Source: an uncultured Candidatus Peribacteria bacterium (GTDB lineage Bacteria; Patescibacteriota; Gracilibacteria; Peribacterales; Peribacteraceae). From it: 64,000 nucleotides of DNA. Numbering within the stretch: the first letter of the stretch is position 1; every line of letters starts with the position of its first letter. The notes below the pieces were generated by a model, which was not told the origin of the DNA, did no database searches, and was given only the letters and a program-made list of their open reading frames with translations. The stretch covers positions 17,823 through 81,822 of the forward strand of contig CAZHLW010000003.1 in assembly GCA_964533375.1 (NCBI GenBank). The letters run 5' to 3'. Below are positions 11,415 through 58,851 of the stretch, in pieces. Made by a program: the position numbers and the translations under genes.

Positions 11415-11419
11415 GGGGA

Positions 11420-14721: not shown

Positions 14722-14730
14722 GGGAGGGGG

Positions 14731-15474: not shown

Positions 15475-15479
15475 AAGGA

Positions 15480-26316: not shown

Positions 26317-26348
26317 AGGAATGGAGGTAATGAAGTACCCTATACTGC

Positions 26349-26380
26349 CAGAAAAGGCGGATCTTGGGAACCCGCCTTCG
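26349..26380 (-). terminator. Hairpin (possible attenuating terminator) after the DsbA-like gene
   Basis: Minus-strand AAGGCGG-gttcccaagat-CCGCCTT followed by TTCTGG, lying between 26402 and the start at 26316. Confidence 0.4.
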
Positions 26381-26401
26381 AGAAACAGTCCTTTTAGGCG
26401 G

Positions 26402-27169: not shown

Positions 27170-27225
27170 AGATAATAAGGGGTAGGTCTTGATGGTAGAG
27201 GGAGCGGAAGCTGGGAGCAAGAATT

Positions 27226-27360
27226 GCCTCACCCCCGACCCCTCTCCATACCCCAACCGCACGCCGCTGGAGAGGGGAGCAGTTTTTCATTCTATAAAGA
27301 AAGCCAGTTCCCCTCTCCCGTTGGAATCCAGGCGGCAGGGAGAGGGGCTAGGGGTGAGGC
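27226..27360. repeat. Nested inverted repeats (G/C-rich GGAGAGGGG / CCCCTCTCC arms)
   Basis: Outer arms are GCCTCACCCCCGACCCCTCTCC (27226-27247) and GGGAGAGGGGCTAGGGGTGAGGC (27338-27360). Inner arms are GGAGAGGGGA (about 27269-27278) and TCCCCTCTCC (27309-27318). It lies in the divergent spacer between the DsbA-like gene and lysS. Confidence 0.75.
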
Positions 27361-31741: not shown

Positions 31742-31788
31742 CTGCTGTTTTCATTGGCAGGCCATGTGCTATTCTTCGCCTCCTGCCT

Positions 31789-39860: not shown

Positions 39861-42773
39861 TTAGACAACCCGGCGGCGGCGCATCCACGCATATCCCGCA
39901 GCCGCACCCGCAGCCATGATGGCTAATGTTGCCGGGCCCGACGCCGTGTTCTCGGGCGGCAGTCCGGTTGTCGGATCGATGACTGTTCCCGTGCCGGATG
40001 TAGCAGACGGCGTTCCGGTTGTCTGTCCCGGCTGGAACGGCAGTTCGATGACGGTGCCGGGAAGGACAGATGGAGATGCGTGCGCAAAGCGGCAAAGTGC
40101 CGTACAGGTCGAACCGGGCTGGCCGTTTTGGGAACCTTCATCACAGAGTTCGAGCGGTGTGTCGACCACGCCGTCACCGCAGCGTCCGAGCGAACAATCG
40201 GGGCGGCACTCCACATTCGGCTGCCAGAGATTTTTAGAACCGTTGTCGCACTCTTCACCGGCATCAATCCGTCCGTTTCCGCAGGCATTGAAGACGACAA
40301 TCGTCGCAGATGATGTTGATGATTCAGTATCTTCACCCGTACCAGACGACACTGACGACATAACTACAGAGAAGGGTACGGATGACCTGCCGGTCACCGG
40401 AACACTGGAAGACTGCCCGATACAACGGAGACACGGCGTCACAGTGTCTGTCACACACACGGCATTCTGCGTTGCGCAGAAATCACTGCCGCCATCTGCA
40501 CATTCGTTCCCTGTGCACATGCCGGTCAGGAACGGCTGGGAGCTGCGTGACGACCGGCTGCTGTTATTCAGCAGATATTTACAGGAGGGGGAGCAGGCAA
40601 AGCGGTTACCCTGATCTTTGAACTGCGGCTCACATTCTTCCCCGCGTTCCGGCTGCAATACGCCATCGCCGCAGAATCCTCCGTTTTGTGTGCAGGTACG
40701 GGAGCAGAGACTGTTTGGCATTCCATTTCTGTTGCCGTTATCACATTCTTCCGATCCTTCGCGCCGTCCGTTGCCGCAGACCGGAACAAATCCGGTGGAT
40801 GAAGACAGCGATACCTCGCTCTCTGCACTGCTGCGCGAGGATGAGCGGCTCGATACGACGCTGGAACTGGACCGGCTGCTACTGGAAGAACTCCTGGAGG
40901 ACGACACAGAGGATACGCGTGAGGAAGAAACGGACGAACGCCTGCTACTACTGACCGACGAAATCCTGGAAGAAGAAACGGAGGAGCGGGAGGAGGATCT
41001 GCCTGAAGAGACGGACGATGCGCGGGAGGAAGAGACCGAAGAGGACCGTAGAGATGAAGATCTATTCGATGATTGTGACGATGCAGAAGACGAGCGGGAG
41101 GAAGTGGAGGAAGACCTGGATGATGACACAGACGATGATAATGATGATTGCGATGAAGACACTGAGGACCTGCTGGAGGACACTGAAGAATGACTGCTTT
41201 GCGAAGAAGACCGCGATGAAGAGACGGAAGAGGCAGATGAGCGAGAGGAAGTGCTGCTCAGGCTGTGTGACGAACCGGATGACACGCTGGAAGAAGACCG
41301 GCTGGAGGATAATGACGATGAGCGTGATGAAGAGACGGAGGATGATCGTGAAGAAGAATGCGAAGAAGTGCTGCTTGCGGAGGAACGGGAGCTGGAACCG
41401 GTCGGACACAGATGTTGTTCCAGCAGTTCTTCAAACGTACAGGGCGTACAGGAGCTGCCATCCGGGAATTCGCTGATCGTGAGGAAATCCTTGCAGGACT
41501 GCGTGCACATCATGTCCTGCGGATCGGTACAGGAAATACAGATATCACGCCGGACACAATCGAGACAGGTATGACCCGCTGTCACACAGGAATCTTCAGG
41601 AGTACTGGCGTTTGACTGGGAATTGCCGGAAGACGCAGCACTGCTTCTGCTGCTGCTTACGCGTGATGACGACCGTGCGGATGATGCGCTGCTTGGCCTG
41701 GATCCGTTGCTGCCGGTACTACCGGTACTGCCTGTTGATCCTGTGCTTCCTGTTGTTCCGGTATCTCCGCCATCCCCTCCCGGATCCCCGCCGGGACCGC
41801 CAGGTCCGCCCGGACCGGAATCAATACCACTCGGTCCTCCGGCTGGAGTGCCGGCTGTTGCATTCCCTGCGGTTGCGTTGGTAGAAAGGGTCCCCGAAGG
41901 GATACCGGCAACGACGCCGGAAGGGGTACCCGCAGGAATACCGGTACCACCACCGCCGCCGGATCTACAAATCGAGTCCGCTTCACCCATACTTTCACTG
42001 CAAGCATAACTCCCCTCATAGTAGCCACGGGGTGAGCATCCCGCTGTTTCCGGATCACATGCGCACTTGGGATCGGTGTTGCCGGGTTCGCATGTCGCAC
42101 AGTTCTGGAAAAGACCGGTACCACATTGCGTGGGAAAGCCATCATCACTGGGATTTCCTTCACAGAAGACACATGCAAGTTTGCCGCACGTTTCCCCGGG
42201 ACTCCGGTACGAAAAATCATGACGGGAATTTGCGCTGTTTGCACAGGTCGGACAGACATCTTCACAACATTGCACGCCGGCCGGACGTGAACATTCACAG
42301 AAAAATCCTCCCGTATCGGCATCGGTACAGGTAAGGCCGGCTTTACACGTTGTCCCCATGGGCATTCCTGAATTGTTCGGACCTCTGAAACAACAGGTGA
42401 AATTACATTTATCGCCTAATTTACCCGGTTGTATGATGCCGGCTTCATCTACCACACACGTAGGGGTATCGGGATCGCAGAAGTTTGTGACAATACACGC
42501 ACCCGCCTGGCAGGTTCCAGCCTGCCCGTTCACATTACATTGTGCATTATTGTTTCTCCGGCATATGCCCGCACCACAGGGATTCGTCGGACCCATATAG
42601 GTATACTCGGGTGGACAGTTGCACTGGTTGTCTATGGGCGATGTCGTACAAACCGTCGTGGGATTTGCCGTAATAATGGCCGTTACCGGCGTCTCTTTCT
42701 GCTGCAACCGCACCGTCACAAAAACCGTGAGTGCAACAAGCGGCAGGAGAATGAAAAGAAAGCGACGATCCAC
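39861..42773 (-). CDS. Giant Cys-rich/Ser-rich modular surface protein, paralog A
   Basis: 970 aa. In order: N-terminal hydrophobic segment, Cys-dense head, Gly/Pro/Thr and Ser-rich spacers, two pairs of CGNG..E..EECDNG / CGDG...E.C repeats, and the C-terminal PPENTASGPATLAIMAAGAAAGYAWMRRRRVV. Confidence 0.8.
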   Translation of the reverse strand: MDRRFLFILLPLVALTVFVTVRLQQKETPVTAIITANPTTVCTTSPIDNQCNCPPEYTYMGPTNPCGAGICRRNNNAQCNVNGQAGTCQAGACIVTNFCDPDTPTCVVDEAGIIQPGKLGDKCNFTCCFRGPNNSGMPMGTTCKAGLTCTDADTGGFFCECSRPAGVQCCEDVCPTCANSANSRHDFSYRSPGETCGKLACVFCEGNPSDDGFPTQCGTGLFQNCATCEPGNTDPKCACDPETAGCSPRGYYEGSYACSESMGEADSICRSGGGGGTGIPAGTPSGVVAGIPSGTLSTNATAGNATAGTPAGGPSGIDSGPGGPGGPGGDPGGDGGDTGTTGSTGSTGSTGSTGSNGSRPSSASSARSSSRVSSSRSSAASSGNSQSNASTPEDSCVTAGHTCLDCVRRDICISCTDPQDMMCTQSCKDFLTISEFPDGSSCTPCTFEELLEQHLCPTGSSSRSSASSTSSHSSSRSSSVSSSRSSSLSSSRSSSSVSSGSSHSLSSTSSRSSASSVSSSRSSSQSSHSSVSSSRSSVSSSQSSLSSSVSSSRSSSTSSRSSSASSQSSNRSSSLRSSSVSSSRASSVSSGRSSSRSSVSSSRISSVSSSRRSSVSSSRVSSVSSSRSSSSSSRSSSSVVSSRSSSRSSAESEVSLSSSTGFVPVCGNGRREGSEECDNGNRNGMPNSLCSRTCTQNGGFCGDGVLQPERGEECEPQFKDQGNRFACSPSCKYLLNNSSRSSRSSQPFLTGMCTGNECADGGSDFCATQNAVCVTDTVTPCLRCIGQSSSVPVTGRSSVPFSVVMSSVSSGTGEDTESSTSSATIVVFNACGNGRIDAGEECDNGSKNLWQPNVECRPDCSLGRCGDGVVDTPLELCDEGSQNGQPGSTCTALCRFAHASPSVLPGTVIELPFQPGQTTGTPSATSGTGTVIDPTTGLPPENTASGPATLAIMAAGAAAGYAWMRRRRVV
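40794..41399 (-). repeat. Ser-rich low-complexity coding tract of paralog A (residues 459-660)
   Basis: About 200 aa of irregular (S3-5-[RVLQT])n. It is mirrored on the plus strand by spurious Asp/Glu-rich ORFs. Confidence 0.85.
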
Positions 42774-42788
42774 GGCAGGAAGTGTAGC

Positions 42789-45700
42789 TTAGAATTTCTT
42801 CCGTCGCATCCACGCAAAGCCCGCTGCAGCTCCTGCAGCCATAATGGCAATGGTGGCGGGACCCGACGCCGTGTTTTCAGGCGGATCGAGCATATCTGCC
42901 GGGATGACATCGACTGTTCCGGTCACCTGTCCCTCCAGAGGATTGTCCGGAGCCGGAGTGAACGGCAGTTCAATTACCGTTGCGGGCAGGACCGACGCAT
43001 CAGACGGCCTGCGGCATAGAGACGTACAGAGCGATCCCAACAATCCGTTTTGTGATCCCAGATCACACAGTTCCAGCGGCGTATCCACTACACCATCCCC
43101 GCAGCGGCCGAATGTGCAGTCCGGACGGCAGAATGCATTGGCACGGACGGAGTTCAGTACGCCATCATCACACTGTTCACCGGGATCGAAGCGCCCGTTG
43201 CCGCAATTGGCCGCGGCAATGAAAACGGCGGAAGAAGCGGATGAAGATCGGCCTGCAAAACTCCGGGAGGATACATTGAAGGATGACGGCCTGAAGGGGG
43301 GTTTAGACGGATCATTGGGAACACAGAGGATGCAGGGAACCGCAGCGTCCTGCACACACGTGGCATCCTGCGCACCGCAGAATTCTGATCCCCCAAGGCT
43401 GCATTCGATGCCGGAACAGATGCCCGGATCTTCCTCGACAACCAAAACCGGGGCAGATGAACGCTGAGAGGAATAGATGTACCGACAACTCTGCGAGCAG
43501 GCGAGCGGCGCATTGTTGGACACAAGCGAGGGTTCGCAATCCTCCCCCAAACGGGCCTGCACAATGCCATCGCCGCATGATGCACGCGTGAAACGGCAGG
43601 CAGTACTGCACAGACTGTTTCTGCCGCCATTCAGGGCGCCGTCATCACATTCTTCGATTCCTTCGCGGCGGTTATTGCCGCAGGTGCTGGTGCGCAAAGA
43701 GGAAGAATGCCCGGAAATAAGGCGGCAGGTATTCGGGTTACAGTTGGAAGCGGGATCTGTCAGGTTGGGTTCGCAGTTTTCCCCGATGAGCGATTCGATG
43801 ATGCCATCACCGCATTCCCCTCCTTCAATTCTGCAGCTGCCGTTACAGCCGTCATCGTTCCGGGTGTTGCCGTCGTCACATTCTTCGCTGCATTCGCGGG
43901 TGCCATTTCCACAAATGTTCATGCAGGAATTTGGGGAAGAAGACGAGTCTGATGCAGGAAACTCAGAACAGCTGATACAGGGCAAATCGCCAATCGCCGT
44001 ACAGAAAGGACGATTCACAGAAGCGCAGAATGCCTGTGCTGCAGGATTGTCGCAGGCAGCGGGATCGCAAAGATTGGACAGACCGGATGACGTACTTCCT
44101 GCAGAGCCGTTGCTGCCGTTTGATCCGCTGGAACCATTTGATCCGGTACTTCCGGTAGATCCATTCGAAGCACCCGAGCCGTTGCTGCCGTTTGATCCGG
44201 CCGAAGAAAGGTTCTGCGTACAAACCTGACAATTACTAAAACCGCAACCCTGCAACGGTCCGCCACAGAAGAGGCCGACGCAGCAGTAGCCAAAAGTTGC
44301 CGACGACACAGAAGACAGGCTGGACGAAGAGCTGGCAGATGATGTGCTGCTTTGGGAGGATATTGATGATGATTGAGACGAGGACTGACTACTGCTCTGG
44401 GAAGATGATTGTGATGATGACACGGACGAAGAGCTGGCGGATGACCTGCTGCTCTGGGAGGAAGAGCGGGACGAAGAAACGGACGATGAAAAACGCGAAG
44501 AGACCGATGATGCGCTACTGCTTTGTGATGACGCCGATGATACGGAAGAGAAGCTACCGGACGATACAGAGGAAGATGAACTGGAAGAAACCGATGAAGA
44601 GCGTGATGCTGAAGAATTGCTGCTTCCTCCGGACGATGATCCTCCGCTGCTGGGACAGGCTGCAGGCTCATTCAAAACCTGCTGCACGGTGCAGGGAGTA
44701 CACGCCGCTCCATCCGGATAGCGGTTGGTGACAATAATATTCGTACAGGATTGTGTGCAGGGATCATTCGGTCCGGCATTGGGGCAAGACACACACGTCT
44801 GTCTGGTTGTACAGTCCGCACAGGCACGGCCGGGTGCTGTACAGTTGATAGAGGATTGTGATGAACTTTGGGATGATACGGACGATGCGGATGATGCAGA
44901 TGACGAACGGGAAGATTGTGAAGAAACCGAGGAAGAGCTGCGGGACGAACTTCTGGAGCTGCTGGCAGATGAACGCGAACTTTGGGATGATGCTGAAGAC
45001 GCACTGCTTGCGCACGGACAGACCGGCACTTGCGTATAGCCGTTTCCCGCTCCACTGCAGGCATCAAAATAATTCACCGTCGCATAATCCTTGCCGGAAT
45101 CCGCGGTCAGTGTCATGGTGTTCGTACCGCCTCCGTCGCAACAGCCGGGGCCTGACCACGTGGTTGTAAATTTTACCTTTCCGCAGCTATCCGCAAAATT
45201 ACAGTCTGTGCTCTCGGTGGTACTGCAGGATCCTGCTGCCAGAAGATCTGCGGATGTTTTCCCCAGAGAGAGATTGATGCTTGTGGCGACCGCGGTGTTC
45301 TGATGAAACGCATTGCCTCCTCCGCCCGCACACGTACAACTCAAAAGCGGTTGTCCCGCAGTACAGACTCCCGATTTACACTGACTTTCCGTTTTGTTCT
45401 GACAGTTATAAGTGCTGCAGGGTGTGTTTTCAGTAACTGCCGGATGCGTGCAGGAACCGCCGGAGCAAATATCATTGGTGCAGGGATTATTGTCATTACA
45501 GTTTGTAGCCTGGTTTTGGGTGGTGCATTGTCCGGAAGACGGTAGCTGTTGGCAGTTACGCGGGAACGTACATCTGCCACCCGAACAAATGTAATCCGCA
45601 GGGCAATCTGCACTGGTGCCACAGGTATGTACCATGGGAAGTTCCGCAATTGCCACACACCGGACAGCAGCCGACACCCCTTTCCAGCAGCCGGGAAAGG

Positions 45701-46181
45701 GATCATAACAAGTGGGAAACCATTCGTATCCAGGATCAATCATCGTATTCGCCCATCCGTTTGTTGCACCGTTCCCCACCTGATTATCACAAATACCGGC
45801 GCAAGATTTTGGAGGGTGTGATGCATTGCATTGCGAATTGGGTCCTCCCAAATCAGTCATTTCTGCTTTATCGAACACCAATCCATATCCCGACGGGCAT
45901 TCAAAATTGTAGGATTCTGTTCCATCCACCGTACATTGTGTACCCGGCGGGCAGTTACAAATATGGGTATACGACCATACCGGCTTTGTGCACCACCCTG
46001 ACGGACTTTGATTGGTGACGGCCTGAGCAGTGAGACTCTTCCCGACGTTCTGCGTCTTTCCGTAGAAAGCCACACACACAAAAAACATCAGAACTCCGGT
46101 TATGAGGAAGCCGTTTTGCCTAGAAGAGAGCAATGCCATGCAAGGCACAATCGTACCGGACCGCTTTGGAAAAAACGACAT
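42789..46181 (-). CDS. Giant Cys-rich/Ser-rich modular surface protein, paralog B
   Basis: 1130 aa with the same plan as paralog A and three pairs of CGNG/CGDG repeats. The C-terminus is PPENTASGPATIAIMAAGAAAGFAWMRRKKF. The start may be the internal MALLSS. Confidence 0.8.
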   Translation of the reverse strand: MSFFPKRSGTIVPCMALLSSRQNGFLITGVLMFFVCVAFYGKTQNVGKSLTAQAVTNQSPSGWCTKPVWSYTHICNCPPGTQCTVDGTESYNFECPSGYGLVFDKAEMTDLGGPNSQCNASHPPKSCAGICDNQVGNGATNGWANTMIDPGYEWFPTCYDPFPGCWKGVSAAVRCVAIAELPMVHTCGTSADCPADYICSGGRCTFPRNCQQLPSSGQCTTQNQATNCNDNNPCTNDICSGGSCTHPAVTENTPCSTYNCQNKTESQCKSGVCTAGQPLLSCTCAGGGGNAFHQNTAVATSINLSLGKTSADLLAAGSCSTTESTDCNFADSCGKVKFTTTWSGPGCCDGGGTNTMTLTADSGKDYATVNYFDACSGAGNGYTQVPVCPCASSASSASSQSSRSSASSSRSSSRSSSSVSSQSSRSSSASSASSVSSQSSSQSSINCTAPGRACADCTTRQTCVSCPNAGPNDPCTQSCTNIIVTNRYPDGAACTPCTVQQVLNEPAACPSSGGSSSGGSSNSSASRSSSVSSSSSSSVSSGSFSSVSSASSQSSSASSVSSRFSSSVSSSRSSSQSSRSSASSSSVSSSQSSSQSSSQSSSQSSSISSQSSTSSASSSSSLSSVSSATFGYCCVGLFCGGPLQGCGFSNCQVCTQNLSSAGSNGSNGSGASNGSTGSTGSNGSSGSNGSNGSAGSTSSGLSNLCDPAACDNPAAQAFCASVNRPFCTAIGDLPCISCSEFPASDSSSSPNSCMNICGNGTRECSEECDDGNTRNDDGCNGSCRIEGGECGDGIIESLIGENCEPNLTDPASNCNPNTCRLISGHSSSLRTSTCGNNRREGIEECDDGALNGGRNSLCSTACRFTRASCGDGIVQARLGEDCEPSLVSNNAPLACSQSCRYIYSSQRSSAPVLVVEEDPGICSGIECSLGGSEFCGAQDATCVQDAAVPCILCVPNDPSKPPFRPSSFNVSSRSFAGRSSSASSAVFIAAANCGNGRFDPGEQCDDGVLNSVRANAFCRPDCTFGRCGDGVVDTPLELCDLGSQNGLLGSLCTSLCRRPSDASVLPATVIELPFTPAPDNPLEGQVTGTVDVIPADMLDPPENTASGPATIAIMAAGAAAGFAWMRRKKF
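44295..44654 (-). repeat. Main Ser-rich tract of paralog B (residues 510-629)
   Basis: Seen directly in the translation. Confidence 0.85.
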
Positions 46182-46187
46182 TTTCTC

Positions 46188-49100
46188 TTAGCGGCGACGG
46201 CGTCTCCATGCATAGCCCGCCGCCGCACCCGCCGCCATAATCACCAGCGTTGCGGGACCTGTGGCTGTTGTTGCCGGTGGCTGTGTTGTGCTTCCGGTAG
46301 TGATATCGAAGGAGCCGGTCACCTGGCCCTGCAGAGCGGTATTTCCATTTGTCGGCATGAACGGCAGATCAATCACCATTGCGGGAAGGACTGTAGTATC
46401 CGATACACGGCGGCAGAGCGTGGTGCAGGAAGAAATCTCCAATCCGTTTTGCGAGCCATCGTCACACGTTTCAAGCGGCGTATCCACAATACCGTCGCCG
46501 CAGCGGCCGAAGGTACAGTCCGGACGGCAGAATGCATTCGGGCGCATGCTATTGATGAGCCCTTCATCACACTGTTCTCCCGGATCAAAGCGACCGTTAC
46601 CACAGTTTGTGTTGGCAATCGGAGCAGCAGACGAAGCGGATGATGATTTCTTCGAGGAAGCTGCAGAGGTAAATCTCAAACGGGCATCCGGTCTGAAAGT
46701 GGATATACCCGGATCGTTGGGAACGCAGAGGATACAGGGAAGCGCAGCATCCCCTACACAGGAAGCATCCTGTAACCCGCAGAATTCCGAGCCTCCGAGC
46801 GCACATTCGGTGCCGGAGCACATGCCGGGAAGATCATTGGTTGCCACAAGAGATGCCGATGATTGCTGTGGCGAATAGAGGAAATGACACTGGGCGTCGC
46901 ACGCAAATGGCGCGTTTTTGGACACAAGCGACGGCTCACAATCTTCTCCAAACCGCTTTTGCACAACATTGTCCCCGCACGCTGCACGCGTGAAACGGCA
47001 GGCAGTACTGCACATACTGTTCCTGCCGCCATTGAGCGGACCGTCGTCACATTCTTCCGTGCCTTCGCGGCGGTTATTGCCGCAAATAATCGAGCGGAGA
47101 GAGGAGTGCGATGAAGGATTGAGACGGCAGGTTTGTGCATGACAGTCCGAGGACGGATCGGTCAGAGCCGGCTCACAGGTTTCCCCAAGCAGGGATTCGA
47201 TGATGCCATCACCGCATTCCCCTCCTTCAATGAGGCAACTGCCGTTGCAGCCGTCATTGTTTTTGGTATTACCGTCATCACATTCTTCAGCGCATTCGCG
47301 GGTGCCGTTGCCGCAAATATGCAGGCAGGAATTTTTGGAAGAGGATGATGGAGGAGTGCCGGAACAGCTGATACAGGGCAGATCATTGATGGGTGTACAG
47401 AACGGGCGATCCACAGAAACACAGAATGCCTGTGCTTCGGGATTCTCGCAGGCAGCGGGATCGCAGTTATTCACGAAGATATCTGTAGAGCTGACGGATG
47501 ATCCGCCAGAACTGGTAGAACTTCTTGAACTGCTTGATGCCGATGATGCACTCGATGCACTGGAATTGCTGTTACTTGCCGAGGAACTGGAAGGCTGCGG
47601 ACACAGCTGGCAGCTCTGTAGGGTACAGCCATAGAGCGGACCACCGCAGAAGGGTCCGATACAGCAGTAACCGCCGGCGGATGAGCTGGAGGATGAACTG
47701 CTCGAACGTGATGAAGACTGGGATGAGCCGGAGGATGCCGAAGAACTACTGTTGGAAGACGACTGGGATGAGCTGCTTGCTGATGAGCCCGAAGAAACAG
47801 ATGACTGCGAGGAGGAAGACCGTGAAGAGGTTGATGAGGCGGAAGAGGCAGACGAACTGCTGGATGACAGCGATGATCTGGATGATGAATATGATGAAGC
47901 GGAGGAACTCCGGGACGATGCGCTGCTGGCAGAAGACACCGACGAGGAGCCCGAAGACTGGGAAGAGGTTGATGATGAAGAAGAAGCGGAAGACTGACTG
48001 CTTCCTCCGGACGATGAGCTCGCACTGCCGGGACAAAGCGGTGCCTCATTCAGAACCTGATTGACCGTACAGGGAACGCAGGATGCTCCATCGGGGAAAC
48101 GGCTTGTTGTAATGAAATTCACACAAGATAATGTGCAGGCATCATGCGGGCCGGCATTGGGGCAGGTTACACAAATATTTCTGGTCGTACAGTCCGCACA
48201 TGCATGACCACGGGTTGTACATCGCACAGAAGATGATGAGCTCCGGGAGGAAGCCGATGATTGCGAAGACGTGGACGATACGGATGATGAGCTTGAAGAC
48301 GACTGCGAAGAAACTGATGAGGAACTTCTGCTGGATGATGCGCTGCTTCGTGAAGACGGCGAACTTTGTGAAGAAGCAGATGACGAACTTCCTCCGCACG
48401 GACAGACCGGAATCTGTTTGTTGCCGGTACCTTGTCCGTTACAGGCATCGTGAAAATCAAGTGTGGCATAATTTTGTCCTGGGTCCGCTGTCAGGATCAT
48501 GGTAGTAGATCCGCCTCCGTCGCAGCACCCCGGACCGGACCAGGTATTTGTGTATTCCACTTTGCCGCAGCTATCCGCAAAGTTACAACTGGTGCTGTCG
48601 TTATTGGTGCAGGATCCTGCAGCCAGAAGAGATGCCGGACGGTTAAAAGAAAGATCCACAAGAGACGCGATATTGTTCATGCGGGTGAAATCTCCGGCTG
48701 CCACGAAGCAGCTGCAATCCTGTCTCTTTTTGCAGGATCCCGTATAGCATTTCTGTTTATTACAATCGTTAGCGGGAAGTGTGTCACAAAGATCAGATCC
48801 ATCCGGCACATCCTGCAGCTGACATGTTCCGCCGATACATTTATTCGGACGACAACTATTGCCTGATGCCGGACAATCAGAATCGACGCTGCATGCCTGT
48901 GCGGGAAGAGGGCAACTGATGGTAGCTGTCAGATTATTGGTATCGCAGTGCGTACTTGTTAAACACCCGTATGCCGACATGCCATATTGTGGAACTATGA
49001 CGCCGTCTCCCACATAGCCAAACACATTCTGATTGCCATTCCATGAATAGCCGGGATGAACGATACATTGTTTTGCCGCTATACACGCAGGGGCTAATTC

Positions 49101-49439
49101 CCCATTAGCGCATCCCATGTTTACAATCTGATTATTGGCACAGGCATCGGAAGATGGACCGAAGGTGATGCTCGTGTAAGGGGAGCCACCTGATCCCCCG
49201 CAATAAATACCATACGGTCCGCCACTGCCTATATTGCTATAGGTACATGTTCCACCCGCCTGACAGTTGCAAATCACATAGTTACCATTGAAATAACAGG
49301 AACCGGGTCCACTCACTAACTGCGCACCCAGTTGTGCCTGCTGCAATCCATGAAAAACAATTGCCCAGATGCTCATCAGCGAAAACAGTGTAACTGCAAT
49401 AATTCCGCGATGTTGAAGGAAGGAAAACATCTCAACCAC
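46188..49439 (-). CDS. Giant Cys-rich/Ser-rich modular surface protein, paralog C
   Basis: 1083 aa. The C-terminus is PPATTATGPATLVIMAAGAAAGYAWRRRRR. Only 6 nt separate it from paralog B. Confidence 0.8.
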   Translation of the reverse strand: MVEMFSFLQHRGIIAVTLFSLMSIWAIVFHGLQQAQLGAQLVSGPGSCYFNGNYVICNCQAGGTCTYSNIGSGGPYGIYCGGSGGSPYTSITFGPSSDACANNQIVNMGCANGELAPACIAAKQCIVHPGYSWNGNQNVFGYVGDGVIVPQYGMSAYGCLTSTHCDTNNLTATISCPLPAQACSVDSDCPASGNSCRPNKCIGGTCQLQDVPDGSDLCDTLPANDCNKQKCYTGSCKKRQDCSCFVAAGDFTRMNNIASLVDLSFNRPASLLAAGSCTNNDSTSCNFADSCGKVEYTNTWSGPGCCDGGGSTTMILTADPGQNYATLDFHDACNGQGTGNKQIPVCPCGGSSSSASSQSSPSSRSSASSSRSSSSVSSQSSSSSSSVSSTSSQSSASSRSSSSSVRCTTRGHACADCTTRNICVTCPNAGPHDACTLSCVNFITTSRFPDGASCVPCTVNQVLNEAPLCPGSASSSSGGSSQSSASSSSSTSSQSSGSSSVSSASSASSRSSSASSYSSSRSSLSSSSSSASSASSTSSRSSSSQSSVSSGSSASSSSQSSSNSSSSASSGSSQSSSRSSSSSSSSSAGGYCCIGPFCGGPLYGCTLQSCQLCPQPSSSSASNSNSSASSASSASSSSRSSTSSGGSSVSSTDIFVNNCDPAACENPEAQAFCVSVDRPFCTPINDLPCISCSGTPPSSSSKNSCLHICGNGTRECAEECDDGNTKNNDGCNGSCLIEGGECGDGIIESLLGETCEPALTDPSSDCHAQTCRLNPSSHSSLRSIICGNNRREGTEECDDGPLNGGRNSMCSTACRFTRAACGDNVVQKRFGEDCEPSLVSKNAPFACDAQCHFLYSPQQSSASLVATNDLPGMCSGTECALGGSEFCGLQDASCVGDAALPCILCVPNDPGISTFRPDARLRFTSAASSKKSSSASSAAPIANTNCGNGRFDPGEQCDEGLINSMRPNAFCRPDCTFGRCGDGIVDTPLETCDDGSQNGLEISSCTTLCRRVSDTTVLPAMVIDLPFMPTNGNTALQGQVTGSFDITTGSTTQPPATTATGPATLVIMAAGAAAGYAWRRRRR
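47673..48029 (-). repeat. Main Ser-rich tract of paralog C (residues 471-589)
   Basis: Seen directly in the translation. Confidence 0.85.
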
Positions 49440-49496
49440 ATCATAGCTAAAAAACAGAGAGTCCTGTTTTTTTCTTTCAGCTTACCTTGACGAAAA

Positions 49497-52400
49497 TCAT
49501 GCTTTTATGCGGCGACGCCTCCACGCATATCCGGCAGCCGCGCCAGCCGCCATGATGGCAATGGTCGCAGGACCGGATGCCGTGTTTTCCGGAGGTGGAC
49601 CATTTTCACCCGGAATGACATCGATAATACCGGTTGTATCAGTCGGAATATCGGTGACCGGCGTAAACGGTAATTCGATGACCGTTGCAGGAAGGACGGT
49701 ATCGGGATCATTGCTGAAGCGGCAGAGAACGGTACAGGTGGAACCGAGTAATCCATTGTGCGATCCCAGATCACACAGTTCCAGCGGCGTATCCACTACA
49801 CCATCACCGCAGCGGCCGAACGTGCAGTCCGGGCGGCAGAACGCATTCGGTCTGTCGGTGTTCCGGGCACCTTCATCGCACTGTTCACCGGCATCAAAGA
49901 AGCCGTTTCCGCAGTTAGGACGCAACACAAAGAGCGCAGAAGAGACAGAAGATGCAAGCGAACTGCGGGATGAACGCGAGGAGCGTGGCACAAAGTTCGG
50001 TCTGAACGGCGGCTTGGACGGATCATTGGGAACGCAGAGAATACAGGGAGCTGCAGCATCTGCCACACAGGACGCATCCTGCGCACCGCAGAATTCCGAT
50101 CCCCCCAGACCACATTCATTACCCCCACAGATAGTATCCACAAGCAGCGGCGTCGATGATGACCGTGAGGATGACGACATTGATCCGTAGATGTAACGGC
50201 AACGGGGAGAACAGGCGAGCGGGGCATTTTTGGACACAAGCGAGGGTTCGCAATCCTCTCCGAAACGGGCCTGCACAATGCCGTCGCCGCATGATGCACG
50301 CGTGAAGCGGCAGGCGGTACTGCACAGACTGTTTCTGCCGCCGTTCAAGGAACCATCATCACATTCTTCTGTTCCTTCACGCCGGTTGTTGCCACAGATT
50401 GCAATGCGCAGGGATGAGCTGGCACCGCCTTTCAGGCGGCAGGTGACGTCATCACAATCCGATGATGGATCGGTGAGGTTGGGTTCGCAGTTTTCGCCGA
50501 TGAGCGATTCGATGATGCCGTCGCCGCATTCCCCTCCCTCAATGTAACAGCTGCCGTTGCAGCCGTCGTTATTCCGGGTGTTGCCGTCATCACATTCTTC
50601 AGCGCATTCACGAGAGCCGTTGCCGCAGATGTGGAGGCAGGAGTTGATGGAGGAAGACTGGCTCGAGCTGGAAAATGCGGATGATGGTGAAGCTGCAGAG
50701 GATGTGACTGCCGTACAGATAATACAAGGTAAAGCGCTGATGGGAGTACAGATCGGGCGATTGACTGATGCACAGAAGGCAAGGGCAGCAGGGTTTTGAC
50801 AGGCGAAGGGATCGCAGAGGTTCGATATCCCGGATGAGGTGCTTCCTGCAGAGCCATTGCTTCCGCCCGATCCATTCGATCCATTGGAACCGTTGCTGCC
50901 ATTGGACCCAGTAGAGCCAGCAGAATTGGCAGACGACTGCTGCGTGCAGATCTGGCAGTTTGAAAGCGTGCAGCCGACAATAGGTCCGCCGCAGATGGGG
51001 CCGATGCAGCAGTACCCTGCACCGACAGATGACGACGAAGAGCGGCTGGAAGAGTTCAGTGATGAAGAGGATTGTGACGATGTTGATGAAGCTGAAGAAG
51101 ATTGGCTACTGCTCTGTGATGATGATTGCGAGGAGGACTGTGATGACTGACTGCTGCTTTGGGAAGAAGCAGATATTGAGGAAGAACGGGATGATAGTGA
51201 TGAAGAAGAAAATGAGCGGCTACTGCTCAGTGATGATGATTGCGAGGAAGAGCGGGAAGAGGATTGTGACGACGCACTGCCGGAAGAGACAGATGATGAA
51301 CGTGAGGATGCGGACGAAGACCGTGACGATGCCGAAGAATTACTACTTCCCCCGGATGACGATCCCCCACTGCTGGGACAGGCTGCAGGCTCATTTAAAA
51401 CCTGTTGCACCGTGCAGGGAATACAGGCCGCACCGTCGGGGTAGCGGTTGGTGACAATAATATTCGTACAGGATTGTGTGCAGGGATCATTCGGTCCGGC
51501 ATTGGGACAGTTCAGACAGATTTGTCTGGTTGTACAATCGCTGCACGAACGTCCGGCCGGTGTACACCTGAAGGAAGATTGTGATGAGCTCTGGGATGAG
51601 GATATGGATGATGTAGAGGAGATGCTTGATGAGGAGCGGGATGAGACAGACGAAGAGGAAGCGGAGCTGCGTGAAGAGCTTCTGGAGGAGACGCTGCTGG
51701 AGGAGCGTGAACTCTGGGAGGATCGGGAGGAAGCGCTGCTGGTACAGGGACAGACCGGTACTTGGGTATAGCCGTTTCCTGCTCCGCTGCAGGCATCGAA
51801 ATAATTCACAGTGGCGTAATCTTTCCCGGCATCCGCAGTCAGTGTCATGGTGTTGGTGCCGCCTCCGTCGCAACAGCCGGGACCCGACCAGGTGGTGGTA
51901 AATTTCACTTTTCCGCAGCTGTCCGCAAAATTGCAGTCCGTGCTCTCGGTGGTACTACACGATCCTGCCGCCAGAAGATCTGCGGTTGGCTTGCCAAGAG
52001 AAAGATTAATACTGGTTGCGAGCGTCCTGCTTGGGTTAAAGGCATTGCCGCCTCCACCTGCACACGTACAACTCAAAAGCGGCTGCCCCGCAGTGCAGAC
52101 TCCCGATTTACACTGACTCTCCGTTTTGTTCTGGCAGTTATACGTACTGCAGGGCGTATTTTCTGCAACTGAAGGATGTGTGCATATTCCACCGGAACAA
52201 ATATCATCGGTGCAGACATTGTTATCATTACAGTTGAGGTTTGTCTGACATTGCGAAGAAGACGCACTGGAAGAAGAAGCTGCCGGCACCGGTTGACAGG
52301 TGGAATACGAGGGGCCCATGGGCGAATTATTCTGTATGCATTTGGACGGATATGGCCTATCCGGCAGAGATCCTCCCTGATAACAATCACTGTCCGATCC

Positions 52401-52955
52401 ACATTGTTCGCCATCGGGTATAAATGAATATGGTCCGTTTGCACCATTGGAACACTGTCTTTTGGCAATATTGCCTGTGCAAATCAGTGTGTGCGACGGA
52501 TCACCTGTCCATTGTTGATAGGCACCATTCCAGCCATTGGGCTGCCAGCCTCCATTGGAAAAAGTAAATGCAGGAGTATCGACATCACAAGGAAGGAATG
52601 TGAGCTTCTCAGCGGTATTCACACTCCCCCAATATCCATGACTGGCTGCATAGGCATACTCATCCTGGCTACCATAACGGGTGCAGGTCAGGGGTTCGGA
52701 TCCTACGCTGCAATAGTATTTCCACCGCGGATTTCCTCCGCATTCGTTAATACACTTCATATCATCTTTCCCTGCACCAATAACATTCATAGATGTCGGT
52801 GCTCCATTGCCACACTGGGGAACATCAATGACAGCTGCTACAAGACGAACGTGTTGTTCTTTGTTTTGAGGCAAAAAGACAAAAAGAAGAACTGCAAAAA
52901 GCGGAAGTAGTAAACCAAGGGTGATGCCATTTTTTTTCCAAAAATAGAACAACAT
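49497..52955 (-). CDS. Giant Cys-rich/Ser-rich modular surface protein, paralog D
   Basis: 1152 aa. The C-terminus is PPENTASGPATIAIMAAGAAAGYAWRRRRIKA. Long blocks are near-identical to paralog B. Confidence 0.8.
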   Translation of the reverse strand: MLFYFWKKNGITLGLLLPLFAVLLFVFLPQNKEQHVRLVAAVIDVPQCGNGAPTSMNVIGAGKDDMKCINECGGNPRWKYYCSVGSEPLTCTRYGSQDEYAYAASHGYWGSVNTAEKLTFLPCDVDTPAFTFSNGGWQPNGWNGAYQQWTGDPSHTLICTGNIAKRQCSNGANGPYSFIPDGEQCGSDSDCYQGGSLPDRPYPSKCIQNNSPMGPSYSTCQPVPAASSSSASSSQCQTNLNCNDNNVCTDDICSGGICTHPSVAENTPCSTYNCQNKTESQCKSGVCTAGQPLLSCTCAGGGGNAFNPSRTLATSINLSLGKPTADLLAAGSCSTTESTDCNFADSCGKVKFTTTWSGPGCCDGGGTNTMTLTADAGKDYATVNYFDACSGAGNGYTQVPVCPCTSSASSRSSQSSRSSSSVSSRSSSRSSASSSSVSSRSSSSISSTSSISSSQSSSQSSFRCTPAGRSCSDCTTRQICLNCPNAGPNDPCTQSCTNIIVTNRYPDGAACIPCTVQQVLNEPAACPSSGGSSSGGSSNSSASSRSSSASSRSSSVSSGSASSQSSSRSSSQSSSLSSSRSFSSSSLSSRSSSISASSQSSSQSSQSSSQSSSQSSSQSSSASSTSSQSSSSLNSSSRSSSSSVGAGYCCIGPICGGPIVGCTLSNCQICTQQSSANSAGSTGSNGSNGSNGSNGSGGSNGSAGSTSSGISNLCDPFACQNPAALAFCASVNRPICTPISALPCIICTAVTSSAASPSSAFSSSSQSSSINSCLHICGNGSRECAEECDDGNTRNNDGCNGSCYIEGGECGDGIIESLIGENCEPNLTDPSSDCDDVTCRLKGGASSSLRIAICGNNRREGTEECDDGSLNGGRNSLCSTACRFTRASCGDGIVQARFGEDCEPSLVSKNAPLACSPRCRYIYGSMSSSSRSSSTPLLVDTICGGNECGLGGSEFCGAQDASCVADAAAPCILCVPNDPSKPPFRPNFVPRSSRSSRSSLASSVSSALFVLRPNCGNGFFDAGEQCDEGARNTDRPNAFCRPDCTFGRCGDGVVDTPLELCDLGSHNGLLGSTCTVLCRFSNDPDTVLPATVIELPFTPVTDIPTDTTGIIDVIPGENGPPPENTASGPATIAIMAAGAAAGYAWRRRRIKA
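51021..51374 (-). repeat. Main Ser-rich tract of paralog D (residues 528-645)
   Basis: Seen directly in the translation. Confidence 0.85.
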
Positions 52956-52995
52956 TCTGCATCCATCCTACGTATGCCGATACAAAAAGAAAATG

Positions 52996-55900
52996 TTATC
53001 TCCTGCGCCGCATCCATGCATAGCCTGCCGCTGCACCCATCGCCATGATGGCAATCGTTGCAGGACCGGATGCCGTCGTAGCCGGCGGCTTCGTACCGCT
53101 GACCCCTTGTCCAACCGCTGTGGACCCGTCAACAGATCCTGGCTGGTCATCGAATGTGAGCGACGGTGTGAACGGCAGCTCAATCACACTGGCCGGGAGA
53201 ACGCCGGACGTAGTGCCATTCTGACAGAAGGCATTGCAGGAAGATGTGAGCAATCCGTTTTGCGAACCGTCGTCGCAGGTTTCGAGCGGTGTATCAATCA
53301 CCGTGTCACCGCAACGCGCAAATGTGCAGTCAGGACGGCAGAACGCATTGGGCTTCAGGGAGTTTTCCAGCCCATCATCACATTCTTCGCCGCTTCCCAA
53401 TTCCCCGTTTCCGCAGCCGGCCATTGCCACAAACAACGGAGTGGACGATGCAGAAGACGAGGATGATGTCTTGAACGATGCTTGTGTCGATGAGTTGAAA
53501 ACCAGCGTCGTATCCGGCCTGAAAGGGGGCTTGCTCGGGTCGTTCGGAATACAGAGGATGCAGGGAAGAGCGGCATCATCAATACAAGATGCATCCTGCG
53601 CGCCGCAGAATTCAGCACCTCCCAGGCTGCATTCCTGGCCGGAGCAGATGTTGGGGATGTCGTCGGGAACGAGGGTGGGTGTGGAAGAATCTGCAAAGTA
53701 GCGATAGTGACAATTGTTATCGCATGCCAGAGGCGCAAACTCGGATATGAGAGACGGTTCACAGTCTTCTTTCAGCAGAGATTCAACAACACCGTTTCCG
53801 CAGGAACCCTGAGTACGACGGCAGGAGGTATTGCAGATGCTGTTTGGGCCGCCATTCAAGGAACCGTCATCGCATTCTTCTGTTCCTTCGCGGCGGTTAT
53901 TGCCGCAAACGGGAAGCGGACTGACAGAGGAATTGGAGGAAGGATTGAGACGGCAGGTATTCGGATTGCAGTCAGAAGAAGGATCAGTCAGAACCGGTTC
54001 ACAGGTTTCCCCGATGAGCGATTCGATAATGCCGTCTCCACATTCCCCTCCTTCTACGAAGCAGCCGCCGTTGCAGCCGTCGTTGTTTCTGGTATTGCCG
54101 TCGTCACATTCTTCAGTGCATTCGCGGGTGCCGTTGCCGCAGATATGGAGGCAGGAATTCACCGACGATGTACCGCCACCCTGAGATGAAGCCGATGAAG
54201 ATGCGGGATCACAGCTGCCGTCATAACATGCTTCTCCTTGCGGACAGTCGTTGTCATCATCACAGTCATCAGGACTACAGGTGCCATTTGTGCACATTTC
54301 TCCTTCGGGACAATCGTTGTTGTCGTTGCATCCATCCAGACAGACAAGACACGGGAGGTTTAACGTGGGTACGCAGACTGGGCGGCCGAGCGCGTTGCAG
54401 AAGTTCTGAGCAGCGGGATTATTGCAGACGAGAGGATCGCAGATGTTATTGGGAGTAGAGGAGCTGCTTGCAGAGCTGCGGGAACTACTGGAAGACGATG
54501 ACACCGTACACGCCTGACAGCTGTCATGGGCACAACCCATCACCGGACCGCCGCAGAATGGACCGATGCAGCAGAAGCCGGGATTTTCGGGTTCACATGT
54601 TCCATTGTCCGTACACTGCTGGCCGGCGGGACAATCGTTATCGCTGTCGCAATCGTCAACACACGCACCATCTTCACACTGCTGATTTGCCGGACAATCG
54701 TTATCAGTCTGACAACTGTCGGTGCACTGGTGATCTTCGCACACCTGGCCCTCCGGGCAATCCGTGTCTCTGTTGCAGCTGTTGGGCTGGCTCACGGATG
54801 ATCCGGCCGATCCGGTGGAACCGGCACTGCTGTTACTTTGCGTACTGCCATTGCTGCCGTTCGATCCGGTGGAACCGCCTGAATTATTGGATCCGCCGGA
54901 GCTGTTACTGCTCCCGGAATGATTCGAGCCGCCGGAAGAACCGGAACTATTGGACCTGCTGCTGCCTGCAGATGACGCAGGACAGACATTGCTGCATCCA
55001 TTTGGACCGCAACTCGGGCAAGTGGGATCATTGCCGCAGCAGAACGGACTGCCAAGAAAACAACTGTATGCAACGTTTGGCAGGAAACAGCTGGAGGTAT
55101 TCGATCCGGTGGAACCGCTACTCGCTGTGGATCCGGCAGACGCATTGCTTGCAGTGCTGTTATTTCCTCCGGAGGAGGCACTGTTTGCCGCAGCGCAGGC
55201 TGCAGCCTGCGTCTGACTTTCCTGCGGGGTACACGGGGTGCAGGCACTTCTGTCCGGGAATTCATGAGGAGTGGGTGATCCGTCCAAGCGGTTAAATCCG
55301 CACACCGCCCCACCCTGACCATTGATTCTGCTGCTACACCAGCCGACAGCGAAGTTCGGACAGTTCGGACCCATCGGCCAGCACTCGGAGTTATTACAGA
55401 TACAGGCCTGTGTCTGCTGACAGTCATTGCAGCGGAACCCGGGATCGGGACAGGCCGCAGCTGATGATTGGGAGGAGGACCGTGACGCACCGGACGATGT
55501 GCTGGAAGCACACAGTGGAGGTTCATTCAGCAGCTCTGTCACCGAACAAAGTGAGCAAGTATCGCCATTTCCGTCTTCAAAGTTATACACCTGTCTGCAC
55601 GTCATCGATCCTGTGGACGGACAAAAATTCGGCCGGTTGGGATCCTGCACAATCATACAAGGCTGACCTGCCGGGCAAACGTAACACGTGCATTCGAGAG
55701 TGACACTCACCAAATGACAATCGTTGCAGCTCTCGCCCTCAGGTGTACAGGCAACCGATGATTGCTGTTGTGATGTTCCCGCTGATGATGATTGCCCCTG
55801 TGATTGTTGTGAGGATGATTGCCTGGATGATGACCTCGCGCTGGATGCCGAACTGCTCTGGCCAGCTGAACTTTGAGCCGATGAACTCTGTGCAGCCTGT

Positions 55901-56487
55901 GATGATGACTGCTGGCCTGCAGATGATTGCGCTGCAGACGAACTGGCAGGGTTTCCGGCAGAGGAAGCCTGACCCTGGCTGGAGGTAGGATTATTATTTG
56001 TACCGGCGGAGCTGCCGCCTCCGGGATTCGAAAAAGCCTGGCCCGCAGACGAGGACGATGTCGGTTCACAGCAGCAATCCGCTCTGCCGGGACACGCACC
56101 CCATCCGGCAGGACAGCCATTCGCTGCTGGATATGCACACGCACCTCCACCTCCGCCCGACGGAGCACACGTCCCGTTCGTACACTGCGACCCATTGCCG
56201 CAAAACTGCGACGCAGGTGAAATGCCTCCGCCTGGCATTTGCCAACAGCATGATCCGCCACACGATCCTCCATCTGCGGACGGGGCGGGATTTCCCTGTC
56301 CGTCGGTCGGACACCAGGGGAGCCCCGGGCTGCCACAACCGCCTGTCTGGGCCGTCAGTGTCTGCTGTTTTTGAAACTGCCGCACCGTTATGACGGATAC
56401 AACAGCAACGCCCAGTACCAGCAGAAGAAGGAAAGGTCTCTTCACAAGGCTGCAGTGTAGCGAAAAAAGAACGCACGCACGATTCAC
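52996..56487 (-). CDS. Giant Cys-rich/Ser-rich modular surface protein, paralog E
   Basis: 1163 aa. It carries extra D-x-D-C-P-x-G-x-x-C repeats. The C-terminus is PPATTASGPATIAIMAMGAAAGYAWMRRRR. Confidence 0.8.
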   Translation of the reverse strand: MNRACVLFSLHCSLVKRPFLLLLVLGVAVVSVITVRQFQKQQTLTAQTGGCGSPGLPWCPTDGQGNPAPSADGGSCGGSCCWQMPGGGISPASQFCGNGSQCTNGTCAPSGGGGGACAYPAANGCPAGWGACPGRADCCCEPTSSSSAGQAFSNPGGGSSAGTNNNPTSSQGQASSAGNPASSSAAQSSAGQQSSSQAAQSSSAQSSAGQSSSASSARSSSRQSSSQQSQGQSSSAGTSQQQSSVACTPEGESCNDCHLVSVTLECTCYVCPAGQPCMIVQDPNRPNFCPSTGSMTCRQVYNFEDGNGDTCSLCSVTELLNEPPLCASSTSSGASRSSSQSSAAACPDPGFRCNDCQQTQACICNNSECWPMGPNCPNFAVGWCSSRINGQGGAVCGFNRLDGSPTPHEFPDRSACTPCTPQESQTQAAACAAANSASSGGNNSTASNASAGSTASSGSTGSNTSSCFLPNVAYSCFLGSPFCCGNDPTCPSCGPNGCSNVCPASSAGSSRSNSSGSSGGSNHSGSSNSSGGSNNSGGSTGSNGSNGSTQSNSSAGSTGSAGSSVSQPNSCNRDTDCPEGQVCEDHQCTDSCQTDNDCPANQQCEDGACVDDCDSDNDCPAGQQCTDNGTCEPENPGFCCIGPFCGGPVMGCAHDSCQACTVSSSSSSSRSSASSSSTPNNICDPLVCNNPAAQNFCNALGRPVCVPTLNLPCLVCLDGCNDNNDCPEGEMCTNGTCSPDDCDDDNDCPQGEACYDGSCDPASSSASSQGGGTSSVNSCLHICGNGTRECTEECDDGNTRNNDGCNGGCFVEGGECGDGIIESLIGETCEPVLTDPSSDCNPNTCRLNPSSNSSVSPLPVCGNNRREGTEECDDGSLNGGPNSICNTSCRRTQGSCGNGVVESLLKEDCEPSLISEFAPLACDNNCHYRYFADSSTPTLVPDDIPNICSGQECSLGGAEFCGAQDASCIDDAALPCILCIPNDPSKPPFRPDTTLVFNSSTQASFKTSSSSSASSTPLFVAMAGCGNGELGSGEECDDGLENSLKPNAFCRPDCTFARCGDTVIDTPLETCDDGSQNGLLTSSCNAFCQNGTTSGVLPASVIELPFTPSLTFDDQPGSVDGSTAVGQGVSGTKPPATTASGPATIAIMAMGAAAGYAWMRRRR
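55753..56058 (-). repeat. Ser/Gln/Ala-rich tract of paralog E (residues 144-245)
   Basis: Seen directly in the translation. A second Ser/Gly/Asn tract lies at about 54784-54975. Confidence 0.8.
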
Positions 56488-58813: not shown

Positions 58814-58851
58814 CCCCATAACCGATAACCGGTAACCCATAACCCGTTACG
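58814..58851. repeat. Heptamer array (CCCCATAACC GATAACC GGTAACC CATAACC CGTTAC), direct repeat of 59730-59762
   Basis: It overlaps the stop codon of the SLH gene (58847-58849). About 30 of 32 nt are identical to the right arm of the element at 59663-59763. Confidence 0.75.

Follow-up and report, generated by a model that had tools for sequence, protein, structure and literature searches.

To our knowledge, how bacteria of the candidate phyla radiation (CPR), also called Patescibacteria, recognize and hold other cells is, apart from the type IV pili of cultivated Saccharibacteria, poorly understood. Within the class Peribacteria, the closest described proteins are those of Candidatus Peribacter riflensis, in which twenty Cys-rich proteins are encoded, a single cluster accounting for 14 (Anantharaman et al, 2016, PeerJ 4:e1607, PMC4736985). 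These extracellular proteins are large, contain 5–11% Cys, mostly carry signal peptides and show weak similarity to Myxococcus repeats and pappalysins, and a role in attachment was proposed for them; strain variation in the same species takes the form of short indels concentrated in twelve proteins, seven of which are very large (PMC4736985). An architectural analogue is Myxococcus TraA, whose polymorphic head, borne on a Cys-rich stalk that carries a C-terminal sorting tag, binds the identical heads of siblings (PMC3325183). Here, we analyzed a 64-kb stretch of DNA from an uncultured groundwater bacterium of the Candidatus Peribacteria (contig CAZHLW010000003.1; hereafter, the window), in which five consecutive genes, termed paralogs A to E (39861–56487, minus strand), encode giant Cys- and Ser-rich proteins. 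The genes are real and under selection, and we think it fairly probable that they encode membrane-anchored stalk-and-head surface proteins whose most likely role is to contact, or adhere to, surfaces or other cells.

The array proteins resemble those of Ca. P. riflensis in belonging to the class Peribacteria, in being clustered, large, Cys-rich and signal-bearing, and in showing the same weak repeat similarity. The 14-gene cluster of that species differs in the lengths of its products (580–2236 aa). The novelty implied by an earlier note, which a model had made on this DNA from its sequence, was therefore overstated: the class of proteins was described in Peribacteria in 2016, with attachment already proposed (PMC4736985), and the present result is incremental to that report of the basic phenomenon. 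The published account consists of a table and a paragraph, without a module map, Ser spacers, tail, selection or synteny analysis (PMC4736985). What we add is a map of modules and selection, a family-exclusive C-terminal tail, synteny with Wzm/Wzt and a protein possibly resembling type C glycosyltransferases (GT-C), and the recognition that public gene calls fragment these genes.

The array occupies 16.6 kb, about a quarter of the window, and consists of five intact open reading frames (ORFs) in the same orientation on the minus strand: A (39861–42773, 970 aa), B (42789–46181, 1130 aa), C (46188–49439, 1083 aa), D (49497–52955, 1152 aa) and E (52996–56487, 1163 aa). They are spaced by 15, 6, 57 and 40 nt, and a re-check of the coordinates reproduced exactly the number, lengths, strand and gaps of the ORFs given in the earlier note. 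Each protein contains 64–112 Cys residues (6.6–9.6%, with E at 9.6%) and 191–236 Ser residues (16.4–22.7%). It could be argued that such an array is an artefact of assembly or annotation, with repeats having collapsed or expanded a smaller number of genes, or low complexity having held pseudogenes open, given that Ser-rich low-complexity regions produce long antisense ORFs and that the orthologs of a relative are fragmented in public gene calls. The DNA itself argues otherwise. For any pair of paralogs, runs of identical DNA reach at most 65 nt. The Ser-rich spacers use all six Ser codons and yielded only one weak 36-nt array in Tandem Repeats Finder, which together rule out slippage-prone DNA repeats in them. 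When B and D were compared in 60-codon windows, the first ~170–200 residues could not be aligned, and the alignable part, through to the end, gave ratios of nonsynonymous to synonymous substitution rates (dN/dS) of 0.01–0.28, with dS ranging from 0.5 to saturation. Because the maximum identity is 65 nt, the spacers are non-repetitive and dN/dS is far below 1, collapse or expansion during assembly is very unlikely. Moreover, one closed genome and several independent metagenome-assembled genomes (MAGs) carry full-length syntenic arrays. We give the artefact explanation almost no credence and consider it effectively refuted.

Recent gene conversion or cassette shuffling among the paralogs was likewise ruled out by the dS of at least 0.5 everywhere and by the shortness of the identical runs. 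The LLAAGSC module (residues 314–404 of D; 51744..52016, minus strand; 8 Cys) is 97–98% identical between D and B at a dS of ~0.8 and a dN/dS of 0.01–0.02, indicating strong purifying selection on old duplicates rather than recent conversion. The modules shared by the paralogs are under strong purifying selection, and the five genes are probably old tandem duplicates of a cell-surface family specific to Peribacteria/Peregrinibacteria.

Five-way alignment of A–E bore out the common beads-on-a-string plan that the earlier note had outlined. Each protein begins with a basic and hydrophobic segment, followed by a Cys-dense head, Ser-rich Cys-free spacers and small Cys modules; toward the C-terminus lie CGNG/CGDG repeat pairs, an invariant VLPxxVIxLPF segment, and a transmembrane (TM) helix with an Arg tail. 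As counted before, there are three repeat pairs in B–E and two in A, in which pair 1 is missing. The sharing of small modules among paralogs also held, and their distribution could be refined: the LLAAGSC module is restricted to B, C and D, the CTTR module occurs in all five (34–88% identity to D), and the GYCC and CDPxxC modules are found in B–E. In addition, B and D have in common a 72-aa knot resembling disintegrin and Dicty_CTDC, while the heads are otherwise not alignable among paralogs. In every paralog, 206–229 residues are Ser-rich, Cys-free spacer, with 66–71% Ser. Specifically, paralog A comprises a head of its own that is 244 aa long and has 32 Cys, a region rich in Gly, Ser and Thr, a CTTR-like module, 209 aa of spacer with 66% Ser, two repeat pairs, VLPGTVIELPF and the tail. 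Paralog B is composed of the head, the knot, the small modules LLAAGSC, CTTR, GYCC and CDPxxC, its three repeat pairs and the tail; C has a head of its own, and E carries additional Cys modules, including DUF7107-like units. The predicted architecture of all five is that of anchored extracytoplasmic proteins.

The repeat pairs make up a conserved stalk, which in D spans residues ~773–1082 (49710..50639, minus strand) and contains three CGNG/CGDG (TIGR02232/DUF4215) pairs and an ECxLGG module. The suggestion that these resemble the Myxococcus-type cysteine-rich repeat was confirmed by hidden Markov model searches, in which TIGR02232 exceeded its curated cutoff of 20.8 bits in all five proteins (A, 21.6; B, 39.7; C, 50.5; D, 33.5; E, 31.6). 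Pfam DUF4215 scored 22.1–25.9 bits in B–E, just under its cutoff of 27, and gave no match in A; among 28 full-length family members, which we compared module by module with D as the reference, it matched 25 at E <= 1e-3 (best, 1.5e-146). Against solved structures, the stalk profile matched one repeat of the pappalysins (8sl1, E = 1.6e-6; 8a7d, 7y5n and 7ufg, E ~1e-5, up to 1.6e-5), at residues ~864–937 of PAPP-A/PAPP-A2, in agreement with the TIGR02232 assignment. The repeat CGNGxxExxEECDDGN...C is common to the array and to TIGR02232/DUF4215 proteins of Myxococcota and other organisms, with a single copy in pappalysin-1 and -2. The array proteins differ from these in organizing the repeats as fixed CGNG/CGDG pairs in a short membrane-proximal stalk, in adding Ser spacers, lineage-specific Cys modules and a tail that is not MYXO-CTERM, and in having no protease domain. 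Pfam and NCBIfam searches with the five proteins and the 28 family members returned only TIGR02232/DUF4215 and, as small Cys motifs, DUF7107 and Dicty_CTDC. A catalytic domain was found in none of the 28, in line with the earlier remark that no catalytic motif is visible.

Using the stalk of D as a query, we retrieved 779 proteins, the best of which are annotated as Candidatus Peribacteria or Peregrinibacteria and as DUF4215 or 'cysteine-rich repeat protein'. The nearest relatives are CPR bacteria of the Candidatus Peribacteria with genomes of ~1.24 Mb, and the small genome that had been guessed at from the window is borne out. The closed 1.24-Mb genome CP082927.1 carries a syntenic array of four genes, R1–R4 (1172, 1224, 1160 and at least 913 aa), before the end of the retrieved locus, compared with five in the window. 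The flanks shared by the two arrays encode a Cache histidine kinase, an SLH protein, an RluB-like synthase and a beta-CASP RNase at 78–91% aa identity. Paralog E is the positional ortholog of R1 (56% overall) and B is closest to R3 (59%); the best blastp partners of D and A are R2 and R4, respectively. With 56–59% identity between orthologs against 78–91% for the flanking genes, divergence has been much faster in the array than in the genes beside it.

Public annotation of CP082927.1 reports R1 (8201–11719) as 572 aa instead of the full 1172 and R3 (15431–18913) as 438 aa instead of 1160, and places short antisense ORFs within the Ser-rich regions. Such fragmented gene calls leave the family under-represented in protein databases, so its apparent absence there is not to be trusted. 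Scanning the GTDB species representatives yielded 13 loci, 12 of them from Peribacteria/Peregrinibacteria MAGs; many are tandem arrays of 3–5 genes, encoding proteins of ~1000–1900 aa with 6–12% Cys and the same tail. In the map of the 28 family members, pairs 1, 2 and 3 and the VLP/tail segment were present in all 28 (36–91% identity to D) and the ECxLGG module in 19. By comparison, the CTTR, GYCC, CDPxxC and LLAAGSC modules occurred mainly in the window, in CP082927.1 (locus L001) and in a further locus, L003, and CDPxxC was present in L005 too. The closer a part lies to the membrane, the better it is conserved: stalk and tail occur family-wide, the middle modules are found in the nearest genomes, and the heads are paralog-specific. 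These data put numbers on the earlier description of variable distal heads above a conserved membrane-proximal stalk.

The C-terminus had been described as a TM helix plus an Arg tail. Both are present, but they belong to a strongly conserved tripartite tail that this description understated. In D, VLPATVIELPF is followed by a variable linker and the tail PPENTASGPAT-IAIMAAGAAAGYAW-RRRR (49500..49700, minus strand), and A, B, C and E have equivalent tails at their 3' ends; the paralogs have in common [ST]GPAT-IAIMAAGAAAGYAW-RRRR, with the five-way form PPxxTA[ST]GPAT[IL]xIMAxGAAAG[YF]AW[MR]RR[RK]. Over the 28 proteins, which are otherwise 25–69% identical, the consensus reads PPxxx[ST]GPAxLAxMAAGAAAGYAWMRRRR, and no member departs from it at a Pro (P1121 in D) that precedes the motif by seven residues, at the GP pair or at GA..G. 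The GA..G lies in the hydrophobic segment, about eight residues past GP, and GAAAG forms a GxxxG-type small-residue pattern. The tail is borne by 35 ORFs in the window and the retrieved Peregrinibacteria loci, each of which encodes a DUF4215-type Cys-rich protein.

We compared the tail with catalogued sorting signals. Like PEP-CTERM, PGF-CTERM and LPXTG signals, it combines a short motif, a TM helix and an Arg cluster at the extreme C-terminus, and like LPXTG it has an [ST]-G dipeptide ahead of the helix. It differs in its signature, [ST]GP[AEG]x rather than PEP, PGF or LPXTG, in the unusual conservation of the TM helix itself (GAAAGYAW), and in its occurrence on one protein family only. The PEP_CTERM model TIGR02595 (cutoff 16) scored 19.2 bits with the 30-aa tail of C and 15.7 bits with the 68-aa tail of D. 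When the full proteins were scanned, Pfam PEP-CTERM matched below cutoff (E = 0.015–0.027) and chiefly over the TM helix and Arg cluster, and none of the 28 proteins has a PEP motif before the helix, the motif there being [ST]GP[AEG][ASTV] in 28/28. MYXO-CTERM (17.4–18.3 bits, cutoff 20) and JDVT-CTERM (17.7–22 bits, cutoff 27) were both below cutoff as well. These two signals are defined by an invariant Cys in the signature motif (10.1101/2023.06.07.544157), and none of the five paralogs contains a Cys in its last ~70 residues. The LPXTG model TIGR01167 reached 13.7 bits (cutoff 15.9), and no conserved LPXTG, LAXTG or NPQTN pentapeptide was present; in the corresponding region only [ST]G is kept, while positions −4 to −2 vary (NTA, TTA, PDT, LQQ, LNQ and others). 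The tail thus appears to be exclusive to this family and to fit no catalogued sorting-signal model. Seven ORFs of the window, unassigned or SLH, were checked for a TLxTC motif, and none has it. The annotation of the sister species Ca. P. riflensis lists two sortase A homologs of ~400 aa, one adjoining a pappalysin-like protein, and its table contains no 'exosortase' or 'archaeosortase' entries; a sortase of relaxed specificity may act on the tail.

At the opposite end, the head of D (residues 41–224; 52284..52835, minus strand; 12 Cys) is a rare Cys-rich domain of ~180 aa with the pattern QC[IV][NE]EC.G.[ND]PRW...DSDCY...RPYPS.C. It was matched in none of the 27 other family members and, among 1.84 billion representative proteins, is common only to the uncharacterized and otherwise unrelated P0127, P0128, P0131 and P0146. 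Of these, P0131 has an HExxH motif elsewhere in the protein and P0146 has LVIVD repeats. An exhaustive HMMER search of the same representatives with residues 41–404 of D gave 45 weak matches, most of which correspond to the short knot (query residues 190–256), akin to disintegrin and Dicty_CTDC repeats. The LLAAGSC module was recovered in that search only from paralog C of the window and from one distant Ser-rich/DUF4215 protein. Scanning metagenome contigs with the head region produced knot matches only and added nothing, and a word-indexed search of 5.8 billion proteins with the head of D found no match, a weak negative, as that database lacks the full-length genes of the relative too. We attribute this empty search and the shortness of the database matches to the fragmentation of family genes in public gene calls.

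The AlphaFold2 (AF2) model of D residues 41–404 was poor, with a predicted local distance difference test (pLDDT) score of 45.5; the LLAAGSC module, which is all-beta, was its sole part at pLDDT 70–85. Foldseek found no fold match at E <= 0.001 for this model, LLAAGSC included. Orthologs of the head of B were identified in R3 of CP082927.1 (41%) and in L003 (58%), and the head of E has orthologs at 56–62% identity (62% for the head of R1). Separately, residues 312–581 of paralog A (40900–41840) matched a PHROG 'tail fiber protein' at E = 1e-9; this single match is confined to Gly/Ser/Thr low-complexity sequence and was judged compositional, and a phage origin was ruled out.

The combination of variable head, Cys-rich repeat stalk and tripartite C-terminal tag parallels the architecture of TraA (PMC3325183), and homotypic receptors for self or kin recognition, working as TraA does, would also be compatible with the fast divergence of the heads relative to the flanks. 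Myxococcus xanthus TraA further resembles the array proteins in its signal peptide, in a stalk that is proposed to be rigid and in the Arg cluster of its tag. We nevertheless regard such a function as improbable. TraA has a PA14 head, TIGR04201 repeats and a MYXO-CTERM signal with an invariant Cys processed by myxosortase, whereas the array proteins gave no PA14 or TIGR04201 match in the Pfam and NCBIfam scans and their tails lack that Cys. In addition, TraA is seated on a diderm outer membrane and is encoded by one polymorphic locus rather than an array of five differing heads; no TraB/OmpA-like partner is present, and social behavior is not known for Peribacteria.

The array adjoins genes for glycan assembly and, possibly, glycan transfer. 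Two paralogous polytopic membrane proteins (36641–38218 and 38252–39853, plus strand; 525 and 533 aa, 40% identical) are encoded convergently with paralog A, with 7 nt between the end of A and the stop codon of the second. Both contain an invariant YPxGxIxPD...RxP motif, and neither gave a sequence match in Pfam, NCBIfam or the PDB. Their sole outside homolog, P0122, carries the Joint Genome Institute (JGI) label 'ArnT-like glycosyltransferase', and the four best Foldseek matches of a poor AF2 model (pLDDT 42.4) were PglB and STT3, at non-significant values (E 0.14–0.79, TM-score ~0.25–0.29). The pair may represent GT-C-type glycosyltransferases. A homolog (36–38%) occupies the same post-array position in loci L002 and L003, where it is followed by Wzm/Wzt (67–70% identity), and L003 also has a homolog of a methyltransferase–GT2 fusion. 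In the window, this 825-aa fusion (31714–34191) belongs to a cluster (29622–36614) that contains GT1/GT4 genes and, at 35065–36614, a Wzt-like ABC ATPase (35065–35772, minus strand) and a Wzm-like ABC-2 permease (35772–36614, minus strand). We take the layout of this cluster to be like that of polysaccharide or S-layer-glycan pathways that depend on an ABC transporter and in which a methylating terminator ends the chain. S-layer proteins are O-glycosylated in Geobacillus, a proposed parallel to glycosylation of the spacers. We infer a functional association of the membrane-protein pair with the array, in which the pair might glycosylate the Ser-rich spacers with the glycan exported by Wzm/Wzt.

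Long Ser-rich regions flanking a binding region are also known from the serine-rich repeat proteins (SRRPs) of Gram-positive bacteria (Fap1, GspB, SraP), C-terminally anchored adhesins in which these regions are heavily O-glycosylated. SRRPs have SxSx dipeptide repeats, an LPXTG signal, cytoplasmic GtfA/B and accessory SecA2/Y2 export. In contrast, the Ser runs of the array are irregular (weak autocorrelation at lags 3–4), LPXTG is absent, Cys-rich modules dominate, and the only SecY of the window is canonical (339.7 bits, cutoff 253.6; under cutoff on SecY2 models).

The array proteins could instead form a structural, non-adhesive coat, a hydrated, mucin-like and probably glycosylated brush whose function is to protect the envelope or to space it; the differences between heads would then reflect drift or evasion of phages or predators, not ligand specificity. 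Such a coat would be consistent with the 206–229 Ser-rich residues in every paralog, with the adjoining glycan cluster, whose Wzm/Wzt and possibly GT-C-like protein are syntenic in L002 and L003, with the lack of a recognizable binding domain, and with the heavy investment of the sister species in surface polymers (PMC4736985). However, purifying selection on the shared head-proximal modules is very strong (dN/dS 0.01–0.02 for LLAAGSC), which argues for a specific structure or function and not for filler. Several non-homologous heads are, moreover, retained intact and are orthologous across genomes (B, 41–58%; E, 56–62%), and an SLH or other lattice-forming domain is found in 0/5 paralogs. The S-layer-like function that had been offered as an option is accordingly unsupported, although two neighboring genes carry SLH. 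We consider a coat, and with it a ligand-independent origin of head diversity, unlikely.

A role in contact or adhesion is the one we favor, as the architecture suggests an adhesin or host-contact protein. The N-terminal hydrophobic signal would lead the protein across the membrane via Sec, and its 64–112 Cys residues would be oxidized outside the cytoplasm, possibly with the help of a DsbA-like protein encoded in the window (26402–27262) and of DsbB, which is annotated in the sister species. The tail ([ST]GP[AEG]x, the GAAAGYAW helix and RRRR) would retain the protein in the membrane with the Arg cluster in the cytoplasm; alternatively, it might mark the protein for cleavage and transfer by a sorting enzyme. 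Above the tail, the TIGR02232/DUF4215 pairs, the best-conserved part of the protein, are predicted to form a rigid, disulfide-stapled stalk. Next would come the small Cys modules, separated by ~206–229 residues of spacer with 66–71% Ser; the spacers are probably extended and possibly O-glycosylated, mucin-like linkers. At the tip, a paralog-specific, Cys-knotted head would confer binding specificity, and the set of differing heads would provide a repertoire of specificities in an organism thought to be host-dependent.

Several points weigh against this proposal. Surface exposure, glycosylation, sorting and binding are all read from sequence features. The Pfam and NCBIfam scans detected no known adhesin or lectin domain in the heads, and the head model was poor and without a fold match at the threshold given above. 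The tail, which appears to fit no catalogued sorting signal, could simply be a conserved TM anchor, and the N-terminal hydrophobic stretch, which is long at about 20 residues, might serve as an anchor that is not cleaved off. No sortase, exosortase, archaeosortase, CPBP or rhomboid protein was found among the scanned ORFs of the 64-kb window. Finally, locus L004 has an array without the putative glycosyltransferase and Wzm/Wzt genes.

A more elaborate scenario, which we regard as doubtful when its parts are taken together, is that the tail is an uncatalogued Peregrinibacteria-specific sorting signal for DUF4215 stalk proteins, perhaps processed by one of the atypical 400-aa sortase homologs of the lineage, and that the GT-C-like pair O-glycosylates the spacers with a glycan made by the glycosyltransferase/methyltransferase cluster and exported by Wzm/Wzt. 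If true, the locus would be a self-contained island with which a CPR bacterium makes a repertoire of glycoproteins for host contact. The 16.6 kb of the array amount to ~1.3% of a ~1.2-Mb Peribacteria genome, a large investment. The stalk and tail offer conserved handles for family-wide detection, for antibodies and for profile searches for the sorting enzyme, and the paralog-specific heads are candidates for binding specificity.

Elsewhere in the window, the DsbA-like protein, two SLH proteins (25054–26454, minus strand, and 58847–59611) and the canonical SecY fit oxidative folding and a monoderm-type envelope; glycosyltransferases are also encoded within the window. In the SLH protein at 25054–26454 (466 aa), which has no family match besides SLH, an acidic Cys/Tyr repeat, 'CYYDxxGRYxCDDDD', recurs ~14 times in the C-terminal half. 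The longest ORFs at 14497–15882 and 9118–9801 (plus strand) look spurious, being Cys/His/Arg-rich and without a family match, and are probably antisense to ribosomal-protein genes of the minus-strand S10/spc operon. A secreted-looking protein of 464 aa (62521–63915, plus strand) with a Ser/Gly/Thr-rich N-terminal half shares only 43% identity with the CP082927.1 ortholog in the corresponding position, compared with 78–91% for its neighbors, and is another fast-evolving envelope protein.

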